Assembly (NCBI GenBank): GCA_046351515.1
Contig: JAXLYJ010000005.1
Coordinates: 306,892 to 370,891 of the forward strand
DNA from: Polyangiales bacterium
GTDB taxonomy: Bacteria > Myxococcota_A > Polyangia > Polyangiales > Ga0077539
Reading direction: 5' to 3'
Length of the DNA: 64,000 nt
Positions within the stretch are counted from its first letter, which is position 1. Each line of letters begins with the position of its first letter. The notes under the pieces are model-generated. The model did no database searches, was not told the origin of the DNA, and saw nothing but the letters and a program-made list of their open reading frames with translations. The position numbers and the translations under genes were made by a program. Shown here in pieces: positions 20,075-40,750 of this stretch.

Positions 20075-21109
20075 ATGGCCGTTGTTCGTCCCTCGACATG
20101 CGTAGCGATCGTGGGGGACGAAGCTGATGGAGCGCTGCGGCTCGTGCGCGCCGTCACTCAGCGCGCGGTGCGTTCGGTCGACGTGGCGATGGATTTCAAC
20201 CCGCCGATGGATGATGGCGGGGCGTTCGAGATCGTCGAGACCGACAAGCGTCGATACCTGTTCGTGCGAAGCGGAGATGACGGGCTCGCGGCGGTGCCCC
20301 GCACGTTCGACGCGGTGGTGCTCGCGTTGAGCGCCGAGCGTTCGGTGACGGCGAGGACGCGCGAGCTGGTATTCGAGCTCTCGTTGACGCATCGCGGACC
20401 GCTCGTCGTGGTGATCTCGGGCTGCGAGTCGGCGAGCGGCGAACCCCACCTCGTCGAGATCGAAGCGCGCGAGCTGCTCGATCAGTTCGGCTTCGACGCG
20501 GACGCAGTCGCGTGCGCGAGGATGCACGGGCTCGACGCGTCCGAGTGGCTCGCATGGCTCGACGATCACGCCTCCGTGTGCGCAGCACCACTGGAGCTCC
20601 CGCTGATCGCACGCGTCGAGCGGCAGAGCTATCGCGGCGCGATGCAGCTCGGCCTCGCGCAAGGCAGGATCGAACGGCGAGCGAAATACCAGGCACTCCG
20701 AGGTGCGATCGCGCTGCCGTGCGCGTTCGAAGAGAGCACGCTCGTCAGTCGAAGCGCGGCGTCATTTGGTGTCGGATCACTGGTCGCGCGCCCCAGGCAA
20801 ACGGGGCTCGAGCCGTCCGATTGGGTGGTGGACGCGTCCATCGCTCGCTCGATCCAGCGGCTTCGCGCGGCGCTGATCGTGACCGAGCCGCTCCTTGATG
20901 GATTGAGCGCCGAGCCGCTGTCGATCGAGTGGGGCAGCAATCGCGTGGACATCGCGCTCGAAGTGCAGCGCGTGTTCGCGGGTGATCGTCTCGCGCTGGT
21001 GACGGTGCGCTCGGACGAGCCGTTCTTCGCCATCGAGAGGGCGGGCGCGACGGTGGTTTCTCGGTTCGAGTTGGAGCGCATCGGCCGCGTTGTGTTCGCG
21101 TCGGACTGA
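20075..21109 (+). CDS. EF-Tu paralog with degenerate GTPase motifs (pseudo-GTPase, tuf-like)
   Basis: 344 aa, collinear with tuf. G1 GHIDHGKT is replaced by GDEADGAL, G3 DCPGH by RSGDD, and G4 NKCD by SGCE. Yet [10 protein letters not shown] is identical to tuf (28 of 30 nt identical). Domain 2 (PLIARVERQSYRGAMQLGLAQGRIERR against [25 protein letters not shown]) and domain 3 (FAIERAGATVVSRFELERIG against [19 protein letters not shown]) are clearly homologous. Confidence 0.6.
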   Translation: MAVVRPSTCVAIVGDEADGALRLVRAVTQRAVRSVDVAMDFNPPMDDGGAFEIVETDKRRYLFVRSGDDGLAAVPRTFDAVVLALSAERSVTARTRELVFELSLTHRGPLVVVISGCESASGEPHLVEIEARELLDQFGFDADAVACARMHGLDASEWLAWLDDHASVCAAPLELPLIARVERQSYRGAMQLGLAQGRIERRAKYQALRGAIALPCAFEESTLVSRSAASFGVGSLVARPRQTGLEPSDWVVDASIARSIQRLRAALIVTEPLLDGLSAEPLSIEWGSNRVDIALEVQRVFAGDRLALVTVRSDEPFFAIERAGATVVSRFELERIGRVVFASD

Positions 21110-25139: not shown

Positions 25140-25517
25140 ATGGAAACGCAGCAGCTCGTCGACACGATCAGCAAGCTCACCCTCAAGCAGGCGGCGGACC
25201 TCGCGGCCGAGCTCAAGAAGTCGCTCGGACTCGAAGGCATCTCCTTCGGCGGCGGCGGCGGCGGCAACGCGGCTCCGGCCGCGGCGGCTGCTCCGGTCGA
25301 GGAGAAGACGGAGTTCACCGTCGAGCTCACCGGCGCTGGCGCGAAGAAGATCGACGTCATCAAGGTTGTCCGTGAGATCACCGGACTCGGCCTGGGCGAG
25401 GCGAAGGCTCTCGTCGAGGGCGCGCCGAAGGCTCTCAAGGAGAACATCGGCAAGGCCGAGGCCGAGGACATCAAGAAGAAGCTCGAGGGCGCTGGCGCCA
25501 CGGTCACCCTCAAGTGA
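25140..25517 (+). CDS. rplL: 50S ribosomal protein L7/L12
   Basis: 125 aa. Gly/Ala-rich hinge and [30 protein letters not shown]-terminal domain. Confidence 0.95.
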
Positions 25518-25581
25518 TCCGAGCCCGTCGCAGGCGTTTGCTGAGTGAGCATTCACTGAGCTCGTGACCGGCGACACTGTA

Positions 25582-25660
25582 GAGGCGACGCAACGTGAGC
25601 ACTCGTGATGAGCGAGCGCGAGCGGGGTGTCGCCTCTCTGCTTTTCTCCCGCAGCGCTCG
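25582..25660 (+). terminator. Possible bidirectional terminator between convergent rplL and the sulfotransferase gene (8-bp inverted repeat gaggcgac/gtcgcctc followed by tctgcttttctcc)
   Basis: Inverted repeat plus T-rich tract seen directly. The loop is large, so the structure is uncertain. Confidence 0.25.
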
Positions 25661-25682
25661 CCACGGTCGTCGCGCGGGCAAA

Positions 25683-26876
25683 CTACGACGTCGAGCGCCG
25701 CTCGAACGGCTCGAGGCGACGACGCAGCGTTTCGTCATCGAGGCCGAAGTCGCTGAGCGCGTGCTTGTGCGCGCCGTGCCGGTGCTTGGGATGCTCGGCC
25801 GCGTACCGCCTCGCGTCGGCGAAATGCGCCTCGCCCCAGCCCATCGCGAAGCGCTCGTTGATCGCGCGAACGACGGACACTGGATCGCTCGTCAGCGCTT
25901 CGTACTCGACGTCGAGCCGCTGTTCAGCAGGCAGCCACGATCGTGCTTCGAGCGACGCGCGCAGGGTGCGTTCGCAGTGATCGAGCGCCTCCCGCCCGAC
26001 CGCGCGCGGGTCGGACTCGCGCACGATCGGCAGGCGAACGCCGTGAATCAAGCTGCACAACGACGAGACGCACGCGTCGAGCGCGCGGTGGCACTCGACG
26101 ATGCGCGCGTCGGGGTACGCCTCGATCAGCGCTCGCAAGAACAACACGTGCGAGGGATCTTTGAGCACCCACGTTGGTTGCTCGTCCCGCTGCCAGAGCT
26201 GCAGCAGCGATCGATGCTCGCGGTACGCGAAGCTCACATCTGCGGTCGCGAGCCAGCGCTGATAGCGCTCGGCGGGGGGGCTCGCGGGGAAGATTCCGCT
26301 GTTCTCGAGGATGAAATGGCACTCGTCTGGGCTCGTCGCTTCGACGTCGTGGATGAGCCGGACGTGAGGCGCCGCTGCGTAGAAGAGCGCCATGTCACGC
26401 GCGCACTGCTCGACGCGGTCGTCGTCAGCGCGGTCTGCGATGGGGCGATACAGCTCGAACAGCTTCGGCGAGCGCGCTCCCTCGATCGAGGCCAACATGC
26501 GCTGCAACAGCGTGGTGCCCGTTCGAGGCAGGCCGAGGATGAAGATCGGCGGCGCGATCGGGCGTGTGGATCCGGCGGCCGATCGCGCGCGCTCGACGTG
26601 CAGCCGATTGATTAGCGCGCGCAACACTCCCTGCCGTGTGAGCTTCGCTCCGAGCCACGTGAGCTGGTCGGTCTCAGCGACAGACTCGAGCAGCAGTTGG
26701 ATCGGTGTCTCGAAGTCGCGCGCGCCGAAGTCACTGAGATTCGTCACACGCCGCGCTTCGGCGCAGAGCTCGTCGAGCGTGGATGAGTTGGTGTTCAAAC
26801 CGATTCGTCGGCCTTGTTCGAGGACGGTGTTGGCGACGCGAAACCATCGCGGAAGATCGCTCTTTTGCCAGGTCAT
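25683..26876 (-). CDS. Sulfotransferase-family protein (PAPS-dependent, Sulfotransfer_3-like)
   Basis: 397 aa. ILGLPRTGTTLLQRML is the 5'-PSB PAPS-binding loop. Later RxxxDP and HRALDACVSS regions are consistent with bacterial sulfotransferases. Confidence 0.65.
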   Translation of the reverse strand: MTWQKSDLPRWFRVANTVLEQGRRIGLNTNSSTLDELCAEARRVTNLSDFGARDFETPIQLLLESVAETDQLTWLGAKLTRQGVLRALINRLHVERARSAAGSTRPIAPPIFILGLPRTGTTLLQRMLASIEGARSPKLFELYRPIADRADDDRVEQCARDMALFYAAAPHVRLIHDVEATSPDECHFILENSGIFPASPPAERYQRWLATADVSFAYREHRSLLQLWQRDEQPTWVLKDPSHVLFLRALIEAYPDARIVECHRALDACVSSLCSLIHGVRLPIVRESDPRAVGREALDHCERTLRASLEARSWLPAEQRLDVEYEALTSDPVSVVRAINERFAMGWGEAHFADARRYAAEHPKHRHGAHKHALSDFGLDDETLRRRLEPFERRSTS

Positions 26877-27072
26877 CTGTTGTCCGAGGGAGTCTTTGCG
26901 GCTGCACGGATCGCCGCCGTTCGCGCACGCGCCGCTGTGCGGCGTCGCTCGATGATCGTCGCGAGTGAACCATCTTCATCATCAACGCGAGCGCGTTCGT
27001 AACGATCGGAAATGCCGCGTCACGCGCTGTTCGCGCTCGACGCTCGCGTGTTGCGGCATACGCGCAGTCACG

Positions 27073-28461
27073 GTGTTTACGTCGCTCTTCAAGCGCTCGA
27101 ATCGCGCGTCGCTCCCGCGGGTCGCGCGACTCTCATCGAAGGTCCTTCACGCTGCCGTCGACGCGCACGGCGCGCACGCGTGGGCGGTGCTCGCGCGTGA
27201 GCACGGCGGCTCGTTTGTGGCATCGACGGGCGAGCTCTGCACTGCCGAGCCCGCGCTCGTCGAGTCGTTCTTGATGCACCGCGCGCACACCGAACACCGC
27301 GCGAAAGCGTACCGGCTCGCTGCGAAGGCGATGCCCGGCGCGGACGGGCTGCTCTTTCAAGACGGAGAGCCGTGGAAGGAGCAGCTCCGCGCGGTGATGC
27401 CGATCTTTCATCACGAGCGCATCGACGCGTTTGCGGCGACCGTCGCAGACACGCTTCGCACGTTTGCGCGACGCGCTCCCGATGGAGCGGACCTGTACCA
27501 CGCGATCACCGAGGCGAGCGCGGAGATCGCGCTGAAGGTCCTGCTCGGGCTCGATCCAGCGAGCGGTCCGGGCCTCGCGGTTCGCGAGCAGCTCGTTTCG
27601 TACAAGCTCGAGACGATGCGCGTCGATCGTTCGATGCGACTCGATGTGCTCGGCGGTCCGCCGATCGAAGCGGTGCTCGCCGCGCCGCGCGTCCTGCGCT
27701 CGATGCTGACGTTGCGCGATCGAGTGGCGATCATTCGCGACGAGCTCGCGCGAGCGAGGCGCGCCGGGATGCTCGATGACACGATCGTCGCGGTCGCCAA
27801 CGTCGCCGCGGACGAGCAGCGCTTCGCGGATTGGATCAATCACCTGTACGGCGCGTACAACGCCGTCGACTACGAGCTCACCGCGGCGCTCGTGTGCCTC
27901 GCGCGTGCGCCCGAGTGGATCGAGGCGCTGCGAGACGAGCTCGACGCGCAGCCGGCCGCCGCTCGCGCGGATCATCGCTCGCTCGCTGCGCTGCCGGTGT
28001 TGCGCGCGATCGTGCGAGAGACCGAGCGCGTGTGCCCCGTCGCAAACGCCGTGTTTCGTCAGGCGGGAGAGCGCTTCGAGTGCCAAGGCGAGTCCTTCGC
28101 CGAGGGCACGCAGGTGATGCTCAACCTCTATGCGCTCATGCGTCACCCTGACCATTGGGAGGAGCCGGATCGGTTCGACCCGAGCCGCTGGATCGGTGAG
28201 CGCGAGGCGAAGATCGCGGAGCGAGCGTTTGTTCCATTTCTCGCGGGGCCGCGACGATGCTTCGGGCGGACGCTGGCCGAGCTCGTGTTGCACGTCGGGC
28301 TGTCGACGATCGTGCGCGAGTTCGACGTCGTTGCGCGCGCCGATGGCGTCGACGTCACCGGACATTTCATCCCGAGATTCGAGCGCCCGATCGCGTTCGA
28401 GTTGCGCGAGCGCGTGAGCTCACCCTCGTCGATCGGCTCGCGCTCCGCGGATCGATGCTGA
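27073..28461 (+). CDS. Cytochrome P450
   Basis: ORF 26965..28461. FVPFLAGPRRCFGRTLAELVL is the heme-thiolate loop (FxxGxRxCxG). ETERVCP is the ExxR K-helix motif and AVDYELTAA is I-helix-like. Start uncertain: GTG at 27073 is proposed. Confidence 0.8.
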   Translation: MFTSLFKRSNRASLPRVARLSSKVLHAAVDAHGAHAWAVLAREHGGSFVASTGELCTAEPALVESFLMHRAHTEHRAKAYRLAAKAMPGADGLLFQDGEPWKEQLRAVMPIFHHERIDAFAATVADTLRTFARRAPDGADLYHAITEASAEIALKVLLGLDPASGPGLAVREQLVSYKLETMRVDRSMRLDVLGGPPIEAVLAAPRVLRSMLTLRDRVAIIRDELARARRAGMLDDTIVAVANVAADEQRFADWINHLYGAYNAVDYELTAALVCLARAPEWIEALRDELDAQPAAARADHRSLAALPVLRAIVRETERVCPVANAVFRQAGERFECQGESFAEGTQVMLNLYALMRHPDHWEEPDRFDPSRWIGEREAKIAERAFVPFLAGPRRCFGRTLAELVLHVGLSTIVREFDVVARADGVDVTGHFIPRFERPIAFELRERVSSPSSIGSRSADRC

Positions 28462-29804
28462 GCAGGTCGGCCATGACGAGTGACTCTGTCGTTCGGGCGA
28501 GCGCGACCGCGCGGCGCTCTGCGCTGTTTGTGTGCATTCCGCTCGTGGGGCACTGCAACCCGTTGATCGCGCAGGCCAAGGCGCTGCGCGCGCGTGGATT
28601 TCGCGTGGCGATCGCGTCGTTCGCCGAGCTGCGCGCGCACGTCACCGCCGCGGGCGTCAGCTTCGTCGACCTCGGGCCCACGCCCGGAGGCGCGACGGCG
28701 ATGAGCGATGTCTTCGAGCGAGCGAGCGCGGCGCGGAGCTTCTTCGCCTCGTCGAAGTTGCTGCTCGAGTGGACGCTCTCGCTGTGGACGCCGCTGTTCG
28801 ACGCGCTCGTCGCGCAGATGCGAGTCGACCGTCCGTCGGTCTTGATCGCGGACCTGATGACGAGCGGAGCGATGGACGCCGCCGAGGCGCTCGACGTGCG
28901 GCTCGTGGTCAACAACGCCGACCTGCTGCCGGCGCTTTCGCTAGGGCTTCTGCCGGTGGCGGACGATGTTCCGCCGCTGTTTTGGGGGCGATCGAGGCGC
29001 TCGATCGGCGCCAAAGAGAAGCTCGCGATCGCCGCCCTTCGATCGATCGCCGTCCGTGAAGCGACCCGCACGGTGGGCGCGACCTTGAATCAACTGCGGC
29101 GGAGTCGAGGGCTGTCGGCGCGCGATGTACACGCGCGGCTCGCGGGAACGTTTGTGATCACGAATTCAACGTTCGCCATCGAGTACCCGCGTCCGTTGCG
29201 GGCGAGCATGGTGATGCTCGGACCGATGCTCGATCGCGACGAGCCTCGGGAGCTCGGCGAGCTCGGCGACTGGTTGAATCGCCCGGAGCCGGTCGTGTAC
29301 GCGAACCTCGGGACCATCGTCGCGCCTGACCGTGCGCTGCTCGATCGGATGAACGACGCGTTTGCGAGGCTCTCTGCGCGGGTCCTGTGGACGCTGCGCC
29401 CTGCGCTGCGCGAGCGATTGCGGCGGCCGGTGGCGAGCAACGTTCGGCTCGTCGAGCGCGTGCCGTCGATGCGAGCGGTGCTCGCGCACGAGCGGGTTCG
29501 TGCGTTTGTGAGTCACTGCGGCGTCAACTCGGCGCACGAGTCGCTGTGGGAAGGGTGCCCCATCGTGGGGCTCGGCGTGTTCGCCGACCAAGACGACATG
29601 GCGTGGAGAGTCGAGGACGCGGGCGTCGGCGTGAGGCTCGATTCGCGCAAGGCGAGCGCGATCGAGATCGCTTCGGCGATCGAGCGCGTGATGCGCGACG
29701 AGTCGATGCGCGCGCGCGCTCGCGAGGTGCGCGCGAGCTTCGAGGCAGCCGGCGGGGCAGAAATGGCGGCGTTGCTCATCGAGCAGTGCGCCGCGCGCGA
29801 ATGA
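28455..29804 (+). CDS. GT1-family UDP-glycosyltransferase (macrolide-GT/CrtX/Rgt-like)
   Basis: ATG overlaps the P450 stop by 7 nt. N-terminal FVCIPLVGHCNPLIAQAKAL and C-terminal FVSHCGVNSAHESLWEGCPIVGLGVFADQ (PSPG-like donor box) are GT1/MGT signatures. Confidence 0.8.
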   Translation: MLSRSAMTSDSVVRASATARRSALFVCIPLVGHCNPLIAQAKALRARGFRVAIASFAELRAHVTAAGVSFVDLGPTPGGATAMSDVFERASAARSFFASSKLLLEWTLSLWTPLFDALVAQMRVDRPSVLIADLMTSGAMDAAEALDVRLVVNNADLLPALSLGLLPVADDVPPLFWGRSRRSIGAKEKLAIAALRSIAVREATRTVGATLNQLRRSRGLSARDVHARLAGTFVITNSTFAIEYPRPLRASMVMLGPMLDRDEPRELGELGDWLNRPEPVVYANLGTIVAPDRALLDRMNDAFARLSARVLWTLRPALRERLRRPVASNVRLVERVPSMRAVLAHERVRAFVSHCGVNSAHESLWEGCPIVGLGVFADQDDMAWRVEDAGVGVRLDSRKASAIEIASAIERVMRDESMRARAREVRASFEAAGGAEMAALLIEQCAARE

Positions 29805-29820
29805 AAGACAGAGAGGAACA

Positions 29821-32079
29821 GTGACGATGAGCGACGAGCTTGCCCGCGGAACAGCGGCGATTCCTTCGGACTGGCCTGGGCGAGGGCCGATCGACCTCGC
29901 GGTGCACGACCTGCCTCACGCTTCGTCTTCGGTCGAGTGGTGGTACGTCAACGCGCACGTCGAGACGGACAAGGGCGCGAAGCTCTCGGTGTTCGCGAGC
30001 TTCTTCGTCGTGACGGTGTCCGACGAGGACGCCGCGCGAACGGGCAGCAAACATCGGCACTTCGTGACGTGGGCGGTGATCGACCCCGAGCGCAGAGCGT
30101 ACGTGGCCGAGGCGCTGCTCGACCCGAAGACGCCCGCCGATGGCATCGAGCGGCTCGATCGCGGAGAAGGTTCGACGGACGTCCGAATTCGGCGCGCGAT
30201 GAGGGAGATGTTCGAGCGAGGAGGCGTTCCGAAGCCAGATCGTCTGCTGCGCACATCGAGCGTGGCGACGGATCGACTGGCGATCGCGATGGACGCGCAG
30301 CGGTTTACGAAGCTCGACGACGGGAGGTATCGCTTGGAGCTCGCGTCGAGCGACGGCGCGACGGGCGCGACGCTCGATTTCTCCCTCGAGAAGCCGGTGA
30401 TTCGCCACGGAGACGACGGCGTCGTCGCGGGCTTCACGGTGAAGCGAATGTTCTACTACTTCGTTCCTCGCTGCGGCGTGAGCGGCACCGTTCGCGTCGC
30501 GGGCGAAGAGCAGCGCGTGGTGAGCGGTCGCGGCTGGTACGACCACGAGTTTGGCGAGCACGCGTCTGGCGCGGCCGGCAAAGAGCAGTCCGTCGCGTGG
30601 AACTGGATCTCAGCGCAGCTCGATGACGGCACCGACGTGAGCGCGTACGAGACCTACGACGAGGGCGATGGAAACAAGCCGCTCGAGCGCCGCGTGGTGA
30701 TCATTGCCGCGGACGGAGCACGCACGGTGCACAGTGATTTCACGCTCGAATCGTCGGAGCCGTGGACGAGCACACGCACGTTCAACGCGTACCCGACGCG
30801 TTGGAAGCTCACGGTGCCTTCGGCTGACCTCGTGATCGACGCGCGCGCGGCGTTCGTGGCCCAGGAGTTTTGCACGCTGCTGTCCCCGCCGGCGTTTTGG
30901 GAGGGACGCATGGACATCCGCGCGAATCGCGCGGGCATCGAGGTGCAAGGCGTCGGGTTCGTCGAGCGGTCGGGGATGCAAGAGTCGACCACGCTCGATC
31001 GCTTCTTCACTGCGGTCGGTCGCGAGTCGCGTCGCGCGGTGGATCAGCTCATCCCGGCGAGGCTCGAACGGCAAGACCTCGTGCGACTGTTCGCGAGCGA
31101 GCGTCACGCGGATCACATGAACGGGGTCGACGCCGAGCAGCTCTCGGCGGTGCTCACTCGTCCGGTTCGCGACATCGCGCTGCGCGGCGGAAAAGCCTGG
31201 CGCTCGTTCGCGCTGCTCGCCTCGCTCGACATGGTGGGCGGCGACTCCGAGCGGCACCGGCACTGGCTCGCGTTTCCTGAGCTGCTGCACACGGGGAGCT
31301 TGATCCTCGACGACGTTCAGGATCGAAGCGAGGTGCGTCGCGGCGGTCCGTCGCTGCACCGGTTGATCGGCGAGCCGCTCGCGATCAACGCGGGCAGCGC
31401 GTGCGCGTACCTCGCGCTGCTCGTCGGGCTGAAGGACGAGATGACGGCGGACGTTCGCGTGCGCGTTCACGAAGAGTTCTTTCAGGCGCTTCGCGCGGCG
31501 CACGCGGGGCAGGCGCTCGACATCGCAGGGTTGCATCACTTGCTTCCCGTGGTCGTCGAGAGCGGCGACGGAGCGCTGCTCGAAGAGCGGGTGAGGGCGA
31601 TCCATCGACTGAAGTCTGCGATTCCGCCGGCGGCGCTCGCGCGCGCGGCGGTGCACATTGCCGGAGGAACGCGGGAGCAAGAAGCGGCGCTCGACGCGCT
31701 CTTCGACGCGTTCGGCGTGGCGTTTCAAGGGATGGACGACGTGCTCAACCTCCGCGGCTTCGAGGGCAACCTCAAGGATCGCGGCGAGGACGTCGCTGAA
31801 GGAAAGGTCACCGCGCCCGTGGCGAAGGCGATGAGCCGGCTCGCGCTCGAGGGGCGCCGCGAGCTGTGGGCCATTCTCGATTCGAGCACGAGGGACCGCG
31901 CGAAGATCGACCGAGCGATCGCGTTGATGGAGTCGTGCGGCGCGATCGACGCGGTCGAGCAAGAAGCGCGTTCGTTGATCGAGACGACGTGGGAGCGCGT
32001 GGCGCCGGTGTTCGAGGACTCGCTCTCGAAGCTGATGATCCGCTCGTTCGGCTGGTACATCCTCGAGCGGCACTACTGA
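29821..32079 (+). CDS. Fusion protein: N-terminal CrtC/AttH-like carotenoid 1,2-hydratase-like lipocalin domain plus C-terminal trans-polyprenyl diphosphate synthase domain
   Basis: GTG start with AGAGAGGA RBS. N-terminal SVEWWYVNAHV...SFFVV matches the CrtC/AttH signature. C-terminal LILDDVQDRSEVRRGGPSLH (FARM), GQALD, FQGMDDVLN (SARM variant DDxxN) and AEGKVT match the isoprenyl diphosphate synthase fold. Confidence 0.65.
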   Translation: MTMSDELARGTAAIPSDWPGRGPIDLAVHDLPHASSSVEWWYVNAHVETDKGAKLSVFASFFVVTVSDEDAARTGSKHRHFVTWAVIDPERRAYVAEALLDPKTPADGIERLDRGEGSTDVRIRRAMREMFERGGVPKPDRLLRTSSVATDRLAIAMDAQRFTKLDDGRYRLELASSDGATGATLDFSLEKPVIRHGDDGVVAGFTVKRMFYYFVPRCGVSGTVRVAGEEQRVVSGRGWYDHEFGEHASGAAGKEQSVAWNWISAQLDDGTDVSAYETYDEGDGNKPLERRVVIIAADGARTVHSDFTLESSEPWTSTRTFNAYPTRWKLTVPSADLVIDARAAFVAQEFCTLLSPPAFWEGRMDIRANRAGIEVQGVGFVERSGMQESTTLDRFFTAVGRESRRAVDQLIPARLERQDLVRLFASERHADHMNGVDAEQLSAVLTRPVRDIALRGGKAWRSFALLASLDMVGGDSERHRHWLAFPELLHTGSLILDDVQDRSEVRRGGPSLHRLIGEPLAINAGSACAYLALLVGLKDEMTADVRVRVHEEFFQALRAAHAGQALDIAGLHHLLPVVVESGDGALLEERVRAIHRLKSAIPPAALARAAVHIAGGTREQEAALDALFDAFGVAFQGMDDVLNLRGFEGNLKDRGEDVAEGKVTAPVAKAMSRLALEGRRELWAILDSSTRDRAKIDRAIALMESCGAIDAVEQEARSLIETTWERVAPVFEDSLSKLMIRSFGWYILERHY

Positions 32080-32099
32080 GCGAGAGCGAGAACGACACC

Positions 32100-33143
32100 G
32101 TGATCGCGACATCGCTCAGCGCTGAGGACGACCTTCGCCACGCACACGGCGACGATCCTCACTGGAACGAATCGTTCTATTTCAATTTCTTCGACGCCGA
32201 CCGCGGCCTCGGCGGCTTCACGCGCATCGGGTTTTCTCCGTCGCGCGGCGTGGTGGACATGGTCCTGTGTGTCTATCGCCCGAGCGGCGGCGTGCTCGTC
32301 GTGCGCAGGGTCGCGCCGTTTTCAGCGCTGAGTGAGCGGCGCTCGCTCGTCGAAGTGGGGCCGCTGCGATTCGAGTGCGTCGAGCCTCTGCATCGTTGGC
32401 GGCTGTTCTTCGCGGGCGACGCGTTTTCGATCAGCGATCCAGCGGTCGTGCTCGCCCTGACGAGGCACGGGCTCGTGGATGTCGCGCGGGCGGGGCTCGC
32501 GATCGATCTGGAGTTTACCGCGCTTCATCCAGTGTACGTGTTTCCGAAGCTGCCGCAGCGGAGGATGTCGCTCGGCGAGTCGCTCGGCGCTCGGCGGTCG
32601 TTTGGGGACATCGTCGCGCGGGCCAGGAGGGTTCCGGCGCGGCTCGCGAGCGCCGTGAAGATGCGAGACAACCATCACTTCGAGCAGGCGGGGCGCGTGC
32701 GCGGGCTCGTCGCGATCGACGGCGAGCGAGTCTCGATCGACGGCACGGGGATGCGCGATCGATCATGGGGCCTTCGCGATTGGACGGTGCCCACGCGCTG
32801 GTGGTGGATCAACACGCAGTTCGGCGACGACCTCGCGTTCAACGCGTTTCGCATTCACCTGTTCGGCTACGACGCGTGGGGCGGCTACGTGTGGAACAAC
32901 GGTCGTCTCAGCACGCTCGGCGATTGGAAGCGCCACGAGCGACAAGACGGCACCGCGTTGCTCACGTTGCCCGCCGAAGACGGCGCGGTGCACGAAGTGA
33001 TCGTCGAGCGACTCATGCCCGTCCCGTTCTCGATCAGCGAGCCCGGGTTCGACACGGTGCTCGACGAGGCGATCGCGAGGTTTCGATGGAACGGGCGGGC
33101 GTCGCTCGGCATCGACGAGAAAATGGAGCGTGTTTTTCCATGA
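32100..33143 (+). CDS. Hypothetical protein, possibly second CrtC/AttH-like beta-sandwich domain protein
   Basis: ORF 31866..33143. Proposed GTG 32100 start just after the upstream stop. HWNESFYFNFFD...WWWINTQFGDD aromatic-rich beta motifs. Its stop overlaps the next start (ATGA). Confidence 0.4.
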   Translation: MIATSLSAEDDLRHAHGDDPHWNESFYFNFFDADRGLGGFTRIGFSPSRGVVDMVLCVYRPSGGVLVVRRVAPFSALSERRSLVEVGPLRFECVEPLHRWRLFFAGDAFSISDPAVVLALTRHGLVDVARAGLAIDLEFTALHPVYVFPKLPQRRMSLGESLGARRSFGDIVARARRVPARLASAVKMRDNHHFEQAGRVRGLVAIDGERVSIDGTGMRDRSWGLRDWTVPTRWWWINTQFGDDLAFNAFRIHLFGYDAWGGYVWNNGRLSTLGDWKRHERQDGTALLTLPAEDGAVHEVIVERLMPVPFSISEPGFDTVLDEAIARFRWNGRASLGIDEKMERVFP

Positions 33144-35830
33144 GCATCCTGATCGACCTCTCGAGCGAGCGCGCGCGTGACGTCGCGCAGGTGGGTTCGA
33201 AGGCCTGCTCGCTCGCCTCGCTCGCGCGCGAGGGCTTTCGGGTCCCCGCCGCGGTGGTCGTCGACAGCGCAGCGTTCGACCGCGCGATCGACGCGCTGGG
33301 CTTGCGCGAGGCGCTCGTCGCGCTGCACGAGGACCGCTCGATCGACGAGCCATCGCTGCGCGAGCGAGCGACGGAGATCCAAGCGTGCATCCGCCGCTCG
33401 AGCCTCGAGCCACCGCTGATCGACGCCGTCCGCGCGTGGGTCACCGACGAGAGCGCTCGTTGGGCGGTGCGCTCGTCAGCGATCGCCGAGGACCTCGGCG
33501 ACGCGAGCTTCGCGGGCGTGTACGAGTCCGTGCTCGGAGCGCGGGGAGCGGACGCGGTCATCGACGCGATCCGGCAATGTTGGGCGTCGTTCGTCTCTGC
33601 GCATGCGATCTCGTATCGAAGGCGGCACGCGACGACGAACTTTCGCGGCGCGGTCCTCGTGCAGGCGCTGATCGACGCGGATGCTGCAGGCGTCGCCTTC
33701 ACGCGAGAGCCGACGACGGGCGCGACGGACGTCGTCGTCATCGAGTCGACGCGCGGTCTGGGCGAGGCGCTCGTCTCGGGGCACGTCTCGCCGGACGCGT
33801 TTTGGGTGCGCAAGCGCGACGGGGTGATCCTACGATCACGCATCGTCGAGAAGCGCTCGGCGACGAGGCTCGCTCCGCAGGGAGTCGAGCTCGTGGCGCT
33901 CGATGAGCGTCAGTCTTTCGCTGCGTCGATTGACGATCGAACGGCGCGCGCGATCGCCGCGGTCGCAACGCAGATCGAGCGTGTTCGCGAGCGCTGCGTC
34001 GACGTCGAGTGGGCGACGGCCGGCGGAGCGCTGTGGGTGCTGCAGGCGCGCGCGATCACCGCGGGAGCGTCATCGCAAGACGCGCGGACCAGCATCGACG
34101 TGAGCGACGACTTCGTCCCTGCGTTGCAGAGCAAAATCGATCCGCGCTTCGTCTGCTACTCGCGAGGAAACATCGGCGAGGTGCTCCCTGGCTGCGTGAC
34201 CCCCCTCGCGTTCAGCTTGTCGGTCCCGCCGCTCGAGCATGCGTTTCGGTCGATGGGCGCGAGCACGGGAGTGCTCCCGGCGCTCGGCGAAGAGCCGGTG
34301 ATCCTCGGGATGTTCTTTCATCGGTTGTACTTGAACGTGAGCGTGTTTCTCGCGATGGCCGACGCCTCGCCGGGAGCGTCACGAGACGCCGTGTACGAAG
34401 AGCTCGTCGGGCCAGTGAGCGAGCGATCGTCGGCGTTCAAGTGGAGCGACCTTCGACCGTCGCGCATCAAGCAAGGCCTGCGCGTGTGGGGCGCCGCGCT
34501 CGCGCAGGACAAGCGCGCGGAGTCCGACCTGGCCGAGTGCGTGCGCGAGCTCGACCGAGAGCGAGCGAGGATCGACGAGTTTCCTCCAGAGCAGTGGGCG
34601 TTGGATCGATTTGTGTCCGAGCCGCTGCTGGTCGCGAGGCGCTCGCGCGCGGTCGACGTTCACATCGTGATCTCGCAGGGGGCGTCGTCGAACTATCGAT
34701 TCTTGAAGGAGCAGTGCGCGAAGCACCTCGGCGACGAGCGCGGCTCGCTCGCAGCGTTGTTGGTCTCGGGAATCGGCTCGCTGGCGAGCGCGGATCCTGC
34801 GGTCGCGATCGACACGCTCGCGCGAGAAGCGCTCGCGCACGCGACGGTCCGGGCGCTGTTCGAGCACGAACACGACGATCGAGCGCTGTGGTCCGCGCTG
34901 CAAGCGAGGCGAATGAGCGACGAGGGGGCCGCGGCGTTTCTGCGCGCCTTCGAGGTGTTCTTGGTGAGGCACGGGCACCGAGGCGTGGGCGAGGGAGATT
35001 TTCGCAACGCGACGTGGCGCGAAGAGCCCCCGCGCGTGCTCGCGTTCGTGCGTGCGCAGCTCGCGACGGGCGGCGTCGAGGCGAGCGCGCGGCTCGATCG
35101 GCAGCGCGCGTTGGCTGAGCGTGCTCGCGCAGAGAGCGCGGCGCGGATCGGCGCGTTGAGTCGATCGGTGTTCACGGCGGTGCTTCAGGGCTCGCTGCGG
35201 TACCTGCGCCTGCGCGAAGAGAGCAAAGACGTCGTGATGCGCTTCGGTGATCTGACGCGTCGAGTGGTGCGCGCGTTGAGCGCGCGGCTGGTCGAAGCGC
35301 AGCGGCTGCACACCGAGGACGACGTGCACTTTTGCACGGTGAACGAGCTGCTCGCGATGGCGAGGGGCGAGCTCGACCGAGAGCAGATCGAGTCGATCGT
35401 GGCTGCGAGGCGGGCGGACTTCGCTAGGTGCGAGGCGATCGACGTTCCCAAGCTGATCGAGGGAAGGGCGCGGTGGATACGCGCGCAGGCTCGAGAGGCT
35501 CCGTCGGGGGCGCTCGCGGGGGTGGCGGCGAGCGCAGGCGTCTTCGAGGGAACCGCGCGGGTGCTGAGCGATCCGTCCGACGGAGCGCGGCTCGAGAAGG
35601 GCGACGTGCTCGTCGCGCCGGTGACCGACCTCGCGTGGACGCCGCTGTTTTCACGGGCGGGCGCCGTGGTGGTCGAGGTCGGCGGGCTTCTGTCCCACGG
35701 CAGCGTCGTGGCGCGCGAGTACGGGCTGCCGGCGGTCGTGGGCGTCGCCGGAGCGCTCGGGGTGATTCGCGATGGCGCGCGCGTGCGGGTGGACGGCGAT
35801 CGCGGCGAAGTGACGGTGCTCGCCCCCTGA
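33140..35830 (+). CDS. PEP-utilizing-enzyme family phosphotransferase with rifampicin-phosphotransferase-like architecture (PPDK_N ATP-grasp, central domain, C-terminal phosphohistidine swivel domain)
   Basis: ATG 33140 inside ORF 32375..35830. N-terminal VGSKACSLASLAREGFRVPAAVVV...WAVRSSAIAEDLGDASFAGVYES is the PPDK/PpsA N-terminal ATP-binding domain. C-terminal GDVLVAPVTDLAWTPLFSRAGAVVVEVGGLLSHGSVVAREYGLPAVVGV is the mobile His domain. There is no C-terminal TIM-barrel, which resembles rifampicin phosphotransferase (Rph) rather than PpsA. Confidence 0.7.
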   Translation: MSILIDLSSERARDVAQVGSKACSLASLAREGFRVPAAVVVDSAAFDRAIDALGLREALVALHEDRSIDEPSLRERATEIQACIRRSSLEPPLIDAVRAWVTDESARWAVRSSAIAEDLGDASFAGVYESVLGARGADAVIDAIRQCWASFVSAHAISYRRRHATTNFRGAVLVQALIDADAAGVAFTREPTTGATDVVVIESTRGLGEALVSGHVSPDAFWVRKRDGVILRSRIVEKRSATRLAPQGVELVALDERQSFAASIDDRTARAIAAVATQIERVRERCVDVEWATAGGALWVLQARAITAGASSQDARTSIDVSDDFVPALQSKIDPRFVCYSRGNIGEVLPGCVTPLAFSLSVPPLEHAFRSMGASTGVLPALGEEPVILGMFFHRLYLNVSVFLAMADASPGASRDAVYEELVGPVSERSSAFKWSDLRPSRIKQGLRVWGAALAQDKRAESDLAECVRELDRERARIDEFPPEQWALDRFVSEPLLVARRSRAVDVHIVISQGASSNYRFLKEQCAKHLGDERGSLAALLVSGIGSLASADPAVAIDTLAREALAHATVRALFEHEHDDRALWSALQARRMSDEGAAAFLRAFEVFLVRHGHRGVGEGDFRNATWREEPPRVLAFVRAQLATGGVEASARLDRQRALAERARAESAARIGALSRSVFTAVLQGSLRYLRLREESKDVVMRFGDLTRRVVRALSARLVEAQRLHTEDDVHFCTVNELLAMARGELDREQIESIVAARRADFARCEAIDVPKLIEGRARWIRAQAREAPSGALAGVAASAGVFEGTARVLSDPSDGARLEKGDVLVAPVTDLAWTPLFSRAGAVVVEVGGLLSHGSVVAREYGLPAVVGVAGALGVIRDGARVRVDGDRGEVTVLAP

Positions 35831-35842
35831 GCGCTGCGCGGC

Positions 35843-36190
35843 TCAGTTCTGCTGGCTCGCGGGCAGCTGCTCGGCCATGAACTCGAGCCCCTGACGGGTG
35901 ATGAGGAAGCGGACCGTTCCGGTTCCGCGCTCGGTGTCGATCGTGGCTTCGAAGGCAGGGCCGCCGACGGTGCCGAGCATCATGTCGCGTCGGAGGTTGT
36001 CGATCTTGCCCTGAACGAGCGGAGCGTTGATCTTGGCGCTGCCTGTGTCCGTTCGGTACAAGTCCCAAGCGGCGTCGAACAGGATGCGAGCGAGCGAAGA
36101 GCTGAGCGGCTGTGTGCTGAAGAGCACGGAGATCAGCCGCCATTTGAAGTCGTCGTCGGGGGAGGGGGCGTCGTTCGAGTCGTCTTGCAT
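35843..36190 (-). CDS. Hypothetical small protein (115 aa) upstream of and divergent from rpoB
   Basis: ORF only. No motifs recognised. Codon usage is consistent with the genome. Confidence 0.35.
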   Translation of the reverse strand: MQDDSNDAPSPDDDFKWRLISVLFSTQPLSSSLARILFDAAWDLYRTDTGSAKINAPLVQGKIDNLRRDMMLGTVGGPAFEATIDTERGTGTVRFLITRQGLEFMAEQLPASQQN

Positions 36191-36559
36191 TGGGCGACAG
36201 AATCACTGTGAGAATTTCGAGGAAATCACGGGGACCGCAAAGAGCGGGCCAGGGGGGCTTGCACGCGTGGTGCGGCCGGGTTAGAAGGCCGCTCCCTCGT
36301 ACTTGCCAGTGTTGTCACTGACGAGGCCGAGTCCGTTAGCCCTGAACTGGAGGAGACGAGAGGCCGCAGCAGAAGCGTTGCAAGTCGACAGCATCGCCCG
36401 ACCGATCGTCCGAGTCATACTACTCCGAACGGAACCGGCGCGCCGCAGCGAAGAAATCGCCTGAAAATCTTCAGGCAACTTCACGCTGCAGCACGGTTGC
36501 CGACCCTTGTGAGCTCTTCTCGCTGAGCCTCTCTCTCCCGACCCGTGCAGAGAGGATCC

Positions 36560-40750
<4,191 letters not shown>

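Follow-up and report, generated by a model that had tools for sequence, protein, structure and literature searches.

The gene at positions 33140-35830 (plus strand) of a 64,000-nucleotide stretch of DNA from a Polyangiales bacterium (assembly GCA_046351515.1, contig JAXLYJ010000005.1, positions 306,892 to 370,891; hereafter the window) encodes an 896-residue ATP-dependent phosphotransferase of the dikinase type, with the fold of rifampicin phosphotransferase (Rph). Its start codon overlaps the stop codon of a gene for a remote homologue of 25-phosphosteroid lyase (25-PSL), and we slightly favour, at a probability of about 0.55, the reading that the two proteins act as a phosphorylation and C–O cleavage module in a terpenoid operon. 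The kinase gene also lies a short distance upstream of rpoB, and an original prediction, made from the window alone, had likened the enzyme to rifampicin phosphotransferase and pointed to its place beside rpoB, offering a terpenoid or other small-molecule substrate as the alternative.

Architecture and catalytic residues of the kinase

The kinase is composed of an N-terminal ATP-grasp domain (positions 33185-34084; Pfam PPDK_N, residues 16–315, E = 7e-68), a central acceptor-binding domain (34085-35593) and a C-terminal swivel phospho-His domain (35594-35806; Pfam PEP-utilizers, residues 819–889, E = 1e-21), all encoded on the plus strand. No PEP-utilizers_C domain, and hence no TIM barrel, was detected with Pfam, and merely seven residues lie between the swivel domain and the C terminus. 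Pfam and the translation thus agree with the original prediction in its description of the 896-residue protein, from the PPDK_N ATP-grasp domain and the long central domain to the C-terminal phospho-His domain with no TIM barrel behind it; the motif that it quoted, EVGGLLSHGSVVAREYGLPAVVG, is present, and its phospho-His is His853. A Polyangiales metagenome-assembled genome encodes, on a 490-kb contig, a predicted protein with 100% identity to the kinase, and the GC content at third codon positions (GC3) of the kinase gene, 0.85, is similar to that of the adjacent genes.

The domain order is that of Rph, not of phosphoenolpyruvate (PEP) synthase, as had been claimed, and structure prediction followed by a fold search bears this out. 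The AlphaFold (AF2) model of the kinase, with a predicted local distance difference test (pLDDT) score of 90, has Listeria Rph (PDB entry 5HV1) as its closest full-length match (Foldseek E = 4e-46, 24% identity), whereas PEP synthase and pyruvate phosphate dikinase (PPDK) match it solely in the ATP-grasp and swivel parts. Listeria Rph is also the closest solved relative by sequence. The single-sequence comparison (E = 1e-74) aligned the two ends only, and a profile of 39 homologues aligned with 5HV1 end to end (positions 4–891, E = 3e-213).

The catalytic residues were mapped onto those of Listeria Rph (Rph-Lm) via the family profile. For this purpose the Rph-Lm sequence was rebuilt from a printed alignment, and its numbering reproduces 14 of the 14 residues named in PMC4844700. 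In Rph-Lm, K22, R117, T136 and E297 serve the first phosphotransfer, H825 is the phospho-His, and Arg666, Glu667 and Lys670 are required for the second phosphotransfer, onto the acceptor (PMC4844700). The first-transfer residues are kept in the window kinase as K21, R111, S130 and E290. The second-transfer residues correspond to R692, E693 and K696, which form an Arg692-Glu693-x-x-Lys696 motif (35213..35227, plus strand), and H825 corresponds to H853, the predicted phospho-carrier, whose codon was checked at 35696..35698 (plus strand; hmmalign mapping). His853 and R692 are invariant among the 39 kinase homologues, and E693 and K696 are kept in at least 90% of them.

Homology shows the kinase to be a predicted active enzyme of the Rph/PigC mechanistic class. 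Because the three-domain order, the fold, the ATP-site residues, the Arg-Glu-x-x-Lys motif and the phospho-His are all kept, it very probably uses the dikinase chemistry of Rph, in which ATP is converted to AMP and inorganic phosphate as the acceptor is phosphorylated. The same catalytic residues are common to the entire superfamily alignment and so do not discriminate Rph from the other members.

The 25-phosphosteroid-lyase-like partner and its pairing with the kinase

The gene directly upstream of the kinase gene (32100..33143, plus strand) most likely starts at the GTG at 32100, giving a protein of 347 residues, the length of its homologues. This partner protein comprises the Pfam domains DUF7065 and DUF7064. 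A profile built from 17 members of its family and compared with the PDB at E ≤ 10 returned 25-PSL as the sole match type (PDB entries 9FZN, 9G2I and 9G4C; E = 1.4e-12), and the two proteins have YFN-F and RDRSWGvR motifs in common. The AlphaFold model of the partner (pLDDT 89.9), a double β-barrel, likewise has 25-PSL as its top fold match (9G4C/9FZN/9G2I; Foldseek E = 5e-13, TM ~0.6), followed by the double-barrel pericyclases (Diels–Alderases) Fsa2, Phm7 and CghA and then by kievitone hydratase of the CrtC family. The partner is a remote homologue of 25-phosphosteroid lyase. It had been described as CrtC/AttH-like, which is correct at the level of the fold; by Pfam it is not a CrtC protein, its nearest relative is 25-PSL, and the CrtC/AttH domain proper lies one gene further upstream (29827-32079). 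Alignment of the DUF7064 family with that AttH domain using hhalign gave a weak local match (probability 26%, E = 7e-4) that is a hint of motif correspondence only. In NCBIfam, the partner matches a family named after Mycobacterium tuberculosis Rv3169, at 84.5 bits against a cut-off of 150.

The kinase ATG at 33140 overlaps the TGA of the partner gene at 33141–33143, so that positions 33137–33146 read TCCATGAGCA, with the ATGA overlap at 33140–33143; the translational coupling noted in the original prediction is therefore present. A DUF7065/DUF7064 gene adjoins the kinase gene in 10 of the 10 independent related loci examined (loci and proteins outside the window are cited by L and P numbers), a sample that, with a handful of fusions, is not a census. 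For kinases 35–78% identical to that of the window, the DUF7064 gene is directly upstream, usually with a 4-nucleotide overlap, in all loci retrieved (L001, L002/3, L004, L009/10, L011, L012, L013 and L014). More remote pairs were found starting from distant DUF7064 proteins. In L017/18 the gene order is reversed and the two genes overlap by 32 nucleotides; the kinase there has 925 residues and 31% identity to the window kinase (31–32% for the proteins of the pair). In L019/20 the DUF7064 gene stands beside an upstream partial open reading frame (ORF) with PPDK_N and PEP-utilizers domains and 27% identity. The latter pair adjoins genes for fibrillarin and a ribosomal protein S15/S13_N (L019:1-3379 and L020) and is probably from an archaeon, and the module thus seems to cross the boundary between bacteria and archaea.

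The two components also occur in single polypeptides. In P0218 (1,178 residues), the N-terminal ~865 residues are 29% identical to the window kinase (E = 2e-92) and the C-terminal ~300 residues are 29% identical to the window DUF7064 protein (E = 2e-44), so that the fusion is collinear with both window proteins; P0201 and P0205 are further fusions of PPDK_N with DUF7065/7064. In P0332 and P0265, DUF7065/DUF7064 is fused, in either order, to APH/EcKL-type kinases of an unrelated fold. Fusion to both Rph-like and APH/EcKL kinases indicates that the lyase-like domain goes with kinases in general, and not with a single kinase family. The DUF7064 family as a whole has 1,239 representatives at E ≤ 1e-10 in an exhaustive profile search, the fusions among them. 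Many relatives of the kinase (P0025, P0026, P0029, P0039 and others), of 1,300–1,550 residues, have the same three Pfam domains as the kinase together with large extra regions or possibly duplicated modules.

Adjacency, translational coupling, reversal of the gene order and fusion to two unrelated kinase folds together constitute strong genomic evidence that the DUF7064 protein uses the product of a kinase. Functional coupling of the window kinase to its DUF7064 neighbour, as read from gene arrangement alone, is accordingly held with high confidence. Among the kinases sampled outside the paired branches, the partner is missing: it is absent beside the kinases of other branches in L005, L006, L008, L015 and L016, L007 has no DUF7064 match either, and a single-protein scan of genome contigs returned four distant Actinomycetota kinases only, all lacking the partner.

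Proposed reaction, terpenoid context and competing explanations

By homology to Rph, the ATP-grasp domain would load the β-phosphate of ATP onto His853, releasing AMP and inorganic phosphate, and the phosphate would travel with the swivel domain to the central domain. There, Arg692, Glu693 and Lys696 would assist its transfer onto a hydroxyl of a small lipophilic molecule. In this way the dikinase would convert a hydroxyl that leaves poorly, in the most plausible case that of a tertiary isoprenoid alcohol, to a phosphate ester, from which the lyase-like partner would expel the phosphate to give an alkene or another carbocation-derived product. Phosphorylation followed by elimination or ionisation of the phosphate is narrowly our preferred course of events; the assignment of an isoprenoid tertiary alcohol as the acceptor is more tentative. 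CrtC-family enzymes (carotenoid 1,2-hydratase, kievitone hydratase) hydrate a terminal prenyl double bond to a tertiary alcohol. Because the family makes such groups and a CrtC/AttH domain adjoins the pair upstream, a tertiary alcohol appears the likeliest acceptor.

The energetics suit such a substrate. PEP synthase spends two anhydride bonds to drive PEP formation, and a dikinase that spends two would likewise make the phosphorylation of a tertiary alcohol irreversible. The ADP-forming kinase 25-HSK, by comparison, catalyses a fully reversible reaction (equilibrium constant 0.34), because the group-transfer potential of a tertiary phosphoester is about that of ATP (PMC8449060). The high group-transfer potential of these esters would explain the usefulness of a dikinase.

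The operon into which the pair is coupled consists of five co-directional plus-strand genes. The first encodes a cytochrome P450 (26965..28461; Pfam), the second a UDP-glycosyltransferase of the MGT/UDPGT family (28473..29804, with the start at 28455 or 28473; Pfam and NCBIfam), and the third a fusion of an N-terminal, hydratase-like CrtC/AttH-type double lipocalin with a trans-polyprenyl diphosphate synthase (29827..32079; Pfam CrtC, Lipocalin_9 and polyprenyl_synt), followed by the partner and the kinase. The genes are tightly packed, with successive gaps of about +11 or −7 (depending on the glycosyltransferase start), 22, 20 and −4 nucleotides. The P450 gene is separated by 88 bp from a divergent sulfotransferase gene (25683..26876, minus strand; Pfam). 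Hydroxylation of the product would fall to the P450, glycosylation to the glycosyltransferase and sulfation to the sulfotransferase, and the end product is probably a modified polyprenoid that is glycosylated, sulfated or both. The terpenoid alternative of the original prediction, with coupling to the upstream ORF, is the one favoured by the evidence, that ORF being a relative of 25-PSL.

The fusion protein has PDB matches to geranylgeranyl diphosphate synthases and to AttH (2ICH). The same fusion stands beside the pair in L001 (2-910), L002/L003 (L002:6689-8962) and L013 (2615-4876). Its first Asp-rich motif is DDVQD, within GSLILDDVQD, and its second is DDVLN instead of DDxxD in all four homologues. 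Because the residues before DDVQD are small, the motif suggests that the synthase may make a product of medium or long chain length, or else carry out a non-standard reaction. Genes for P450, glycosyltransferase, sulfotransferase and methyltransferase recur around the pair: P450 homologues adjoin it in L001 and L013, a sulfotransferase gene follows the kinase gene in L013, and the orthologous glycosyltransferase gene is downstream in L001. In P0015 (1,332 residues; L002:10001-13999, L003:4871-8869) this glycosyltransferase is fused to the C terminus of the kinase, which links these two pathway steps.

A second type of locus, in L009–L011 (L009:7132-17035), comprises genes for a TetR regulator, a FadL/Toluene_X channel of the outer membrane, the DUF7064 protein and the kinase, together with an Fe-S (Fer4/CCG) protein and two FAD_binding_4 proteins. 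This composition suggests a catabolic role, namely uptake and breakdown of a hydrophobic alcohol. A tie between these loci and the Δ24 desaturase of Sterolibacterium was considered and rejected, as that desaturase is CtmAB-like and not of the FAD_binding_4 type (PMC11061730).

The closest functional precedent is found in Sterolibacterium denitrificans, in which the tertiary alcohol at C25 in the side chain of cholesterol is phosphorylated by an ATP-dependent kinase and the phosphate is eliminated to give a Δ24 alkene (PMC8449060, PMC11061730). The kinase of this cascade, 25-HSK, has a mass of 40 kDa, is assigned to the 'phosphotransferase family' and forms ADP, and the kinase and lyase genes are unlinked (PMC8449060). 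The window pair resembles the 25-HSK/25-PSL cascade in the remote homology of its partner to the lyase, in the logic of a kinase followed by elimination and in its isoprenoid context, and fusions to APH/EcKL-type kinases occur among the DUF7064 proteins. It differs in that its two genes overlap and in that its context is biosynthetic, not one of anaerobic steroid catabolism. The window pair is a variant, not a member, of the 25-HSK/25-PSL type of dehydration, because its kinase is a PPDK_N/swivel-His dikinase and not of the 25-HSK type.

A further comparison is provided by M. tuberculosis, in which Rv3169 is co-transcribed with Rv3168 and repressed by the TetR protein Rv3167c (PMC5340868). This TetR control resembles the TetR-FadL-lyase-kinase arrangement of L009–L011, and the Rv3169 family is the one matched by the window partner. 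Rv3168 is presumably an APH-type phosphotransferase, unlike the window dikinase. The fusions P0332 and P0265 suggest that a kinase–lyase cascade of the steroid type may also exist as single polypeptides, and Rv3168-Rv3169 may be a two-gene version of it.

The literature searched, which did not include the 25-PSL structure paper and its possible discussion of related genes, makes no mention of DUF7064/DUF7065, of this pairing or of Rph- or PigC-like enzymes in terpenoid pathways. The kinase–lyase module appears to be undescribed. The Rph superfamily has been presented as large, with substrates yet to be explored (PMC4844700), and the pairing with a relative of 25-PSL would give one of its branches a concrete function, in which ATP would drive the activation of a hydroxyl group and its removal. 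In Polyangiales that are uncultured, and in other bacteria, the pair is also the mark of a kind of terpenoid-glycoside gene cluster that is undescribed and is characterized by the CrtC/AttH–polyprenyl synthase fusion, next to the second type of locus that looks catabolic.

Several points weigh against phosphorylation followed by elimination. The window kinase is an 896-residue Rph-fold dikinase, not a 40-kDa ADP-forming kinase as in the steroid cascade, and the kinases of L015 and L016, at ~31% identity to it, have no DUF7064 neighbour. Identity between the partner and 25-PSL is 17–20%. The invariant residues H193 and E195 of the partner family have no counterpart in 25-PSL in the printed alignment, and its chemistry could therefore differ, with hydratase, cyclase or isomerase activity possible. 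If CrtC-like hydration were followed by elimination that restored the same trisubstituted alkene, the result would be a futile cycle, so that a different regiochemistry, another hydroxyl group or a cyclisation must be assumed. For the whole clade, moreover, functional statements draw on homology and genomic association.

Cyclisation would be one outcome of a bolder version of the proposed sequence, which we regard as quite unlikely: the pair may be a new start of terpenoid carbocation chemistry, in which a tertiary alcohol, made by the fused CrtC/AttH-like domain at the ω-end of a polyprenyl chain, is phosphorylated to a high-energy ester and the ester is ionised by the DUF7064 barrel, a fold common to pericyclases. 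The chain would then be cyclised, or its double bond moved in an energetically uphill step, before decoration by the P450, glycosyltransferase and sulfotransferase. If true, terpene cations would arise by a route other than loss of diphosphate or protonation, and one large, as yet unexplored branch of the Rph superfamily would have a general role in bacteria and archaea.

Of the rival explanations, the most probable, although we consider it unlikely, is that the final terpenoid retains the phosphate, or that the phosphate is a handle used in export or regulation, with the DUF7064 protein acting as a hydratase, cyclase or isomerase of the CrtC/AttH/Diels–Alderase fold class. The low identity of the partner to 25-PSL, the resemblance of its fold to kievitone hydratase and to the pericyclases Fsa2, Phm7 and CghA, and the alignment of its RDRSWG motif with the WxDHEFG motif of the CrtC/AttH domain in the weak hhalign match are all consistent with a stable phosphate. 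The nearest relative by both sequence and structure, however, is a phospho-lyase and not a hydratase, and the occurrence of the lyase-like domain fused or adjacent to two unrelated kinase folds, in bacteria and probably archaea, would be difficult to account for if the domain did not use the product of the kinase directly.

It is less probable still that the kinase is a ligase akin to PigC or RedH, in which a phosphorylated carbonyl or enol oxygen would activate a C–C or C–N condensation with a second substrate. The prodiginine ligases PigC, RedH and HapC belong to the same superfamily, have the same architecture and C-terminal catalytic His, and serve biosynthesis and not resistance. The mechanism is shared across the family (PMC13534948). 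The NCBIfam models of PigC and RedH score as high on the window kinase as those of Rph, yet both are well under their cut-offs (366 against 1,300 bits for NF052631 and 356 against 1,350 bits for NF052632). The operon has no genes for pyrrole or bipyrrole biosynthesis, and prodiginine ligases couple two substrates. The window kinase, by contrast, has an invariant lyase-like partner; to our knowledge, no lyase partner is known or needed in the prodiginine systems.

The rpoB neighbourhood and the case for rifampicin phosphotransferase

A true Rph, shielding RNA polymerase and placed beside its target gene rpoB for that reason, has an evident appeal. Like Rph-Lm (PDB entries 5FBS/5FBT/5FBU and 5HV1-3), the window kinase has an ATP-grasp domain, a large helical central acceptor domain and a C-terminal swivel His; the catalytic residues agree, Rph is its top PDB match by sequence and by fold, and several metagenome annotations label its relatives 'rifampicin phosphotransferase'. 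The comparison around His825 of the Listeria enzyme, proposed with the original prediction, accordingly found the phospho-His and the Arg-Glu-x-x-Lys motif conserved. The comparison of the rifampin-binding domain came out differently. The ATP-grasp and swivel domains of the window kinase are 31% and 49.5% identical to those of Rph-Lm, whereas its central acceptor domain reaches only 16.6%, and the residues of the rifampin site are changed in six of the six positions checked (Q336 to G346, Q337 to E347, Y351 to S361, V368 to L398, T523 to S550 and G527 to A554), with equivalences that are approximate given the low alignment confidence in this region.

Family models and phylogeny point the same way. 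Both NCBIfam equivalog models of Rph are far under their cut-offs (348.6 against 999 bits for NF041857, RIF_Ptrans_rph, and 229 against 1,700 bits for NF000283), and PigC, RedH and several 'PEP synthase' PRK06241 models, all likewise far under their cut-offs, score equally well or better. In a crude superfamily tree, built by rough neighbour-joining on BLOSUM distances, Rph-Lm clusters with the Bacillus protein P0080, and the window kinase falls in a separate clade with P0002-P0024, P0027 and the kinase of L017. Pairing with DUF7064 and translational coupling into a terpenoid operon are further differences from Rph. RpoB itself has the ordinary, rifampicin-sensitive residues at the equivalents of D516, H526 and S531.

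The position next to rpoB, which had been called striking, is as close as stated, since the rpoB ATG at 36560 is 729 nucleotides past the kinase stop at 35830 (the prediction gave ~730). The two genes are not direct neighbours, however. A conserved 115-residue ORF on the opposite strand (35843..36190, minus strand) lies between them, convergent with the kinase gene across a 12-nucleotide gap and divergent from rpoB, at 369 nucleotides. This arrangement implies that the kinase and rpoB do not form one transcription unit. The order DUF7064-kinase-orf115-rpoB is repeated only in L014, the sole close relative (kinase 78% identical), on a 4.6-kb contig, and rpoB was not found near any other related locus examined (L001-L004, L009-L013 and L017-L020). 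Adjacency to rpoB is best read as incidental, an accident of the location of the operon in one lineage.

The window kinase is thus in all likelihood not a true Rph, and an enzyme placed by rpoB to protect RNA polymerase is a highly improbable reading of the locus. Self-resistance to an inhibitor of RNA polymerase was also considered and rejected: the rifampicin region of RpoB is ordinary, and rpoB is a single housekeeping copy in the tuf-secE-nusG-rplKAJL-rpoBC array. The remaining candidate, an ordinary PEP synthase or PPDK of central metabolism, as named in some annotations and suggested by the PPDK_N and PEP-utilizers domains and by matches to PEP synthase models and PDB entries, has a negligible probability and is ruled out by a domain architecture with no PEP-utilizers_C TIM barrel and with the His domain at the C terminus and not in the centre, in line with a score of 280 against the cut-off of 740 for NCBIfam PEP_synth (TIGR01418). 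Members of the clade are publicly labelled 'rifampicin phosphotransferase' or 'PEP synthase', and counting them as resistance genes would inflate surveys of resistomes.

The 115-residue ORF has no Pfam or NCBIfam match. Its counterpart in L014 is 93% identical, against 78% for the adjoining kinase, so that the ORF is apparently under stronger constraint than the kinase. It separates the operon from rpoB and is outside the kinase–lyase module.

In the window, tuf, a tRNA gene, secE, nusG, rplK, rplA, rplJ and rplL are followed by rpoB and rpoC. The start of rpoB (36560-40750, plus strand; 1,396 residues) was corrected to the ATG at 36560. The rplL gene ends at 25517, and from there to the minus-strand ORF preceding rpoB is ~10.7 kb; the near-universal rplKAJL-rpoBC array is broken between rplL and rpoB by ~11 kb in all (25518-36559). 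A foreign origin of this insert was considered and rejected, as the operon genes resemble the remainder of the window in GC content and GC3 and an Rfam scan, which showed tRNAs only, placed none at the flanks of the operon; nothing suggests recent transfer. A scan of 25400-36700 for promoters and terminators gave nothing above chance.

Three further observations concern the housekeeping genes. One unrelated member of the kinase superfamily adjoins nusA-infB. Another insertion into the compact array of the window is an ORF of 344 residues (20075-21109, plus strand), with high GC3 and no Pfam match, between tuf and tRNA-secE-nusG. In RpoB, the Pfam domains Rpb2_1 and Rpb2_6 are stretched over ~500–560 residues each, which implies large lineage-specific insertions in this protein.

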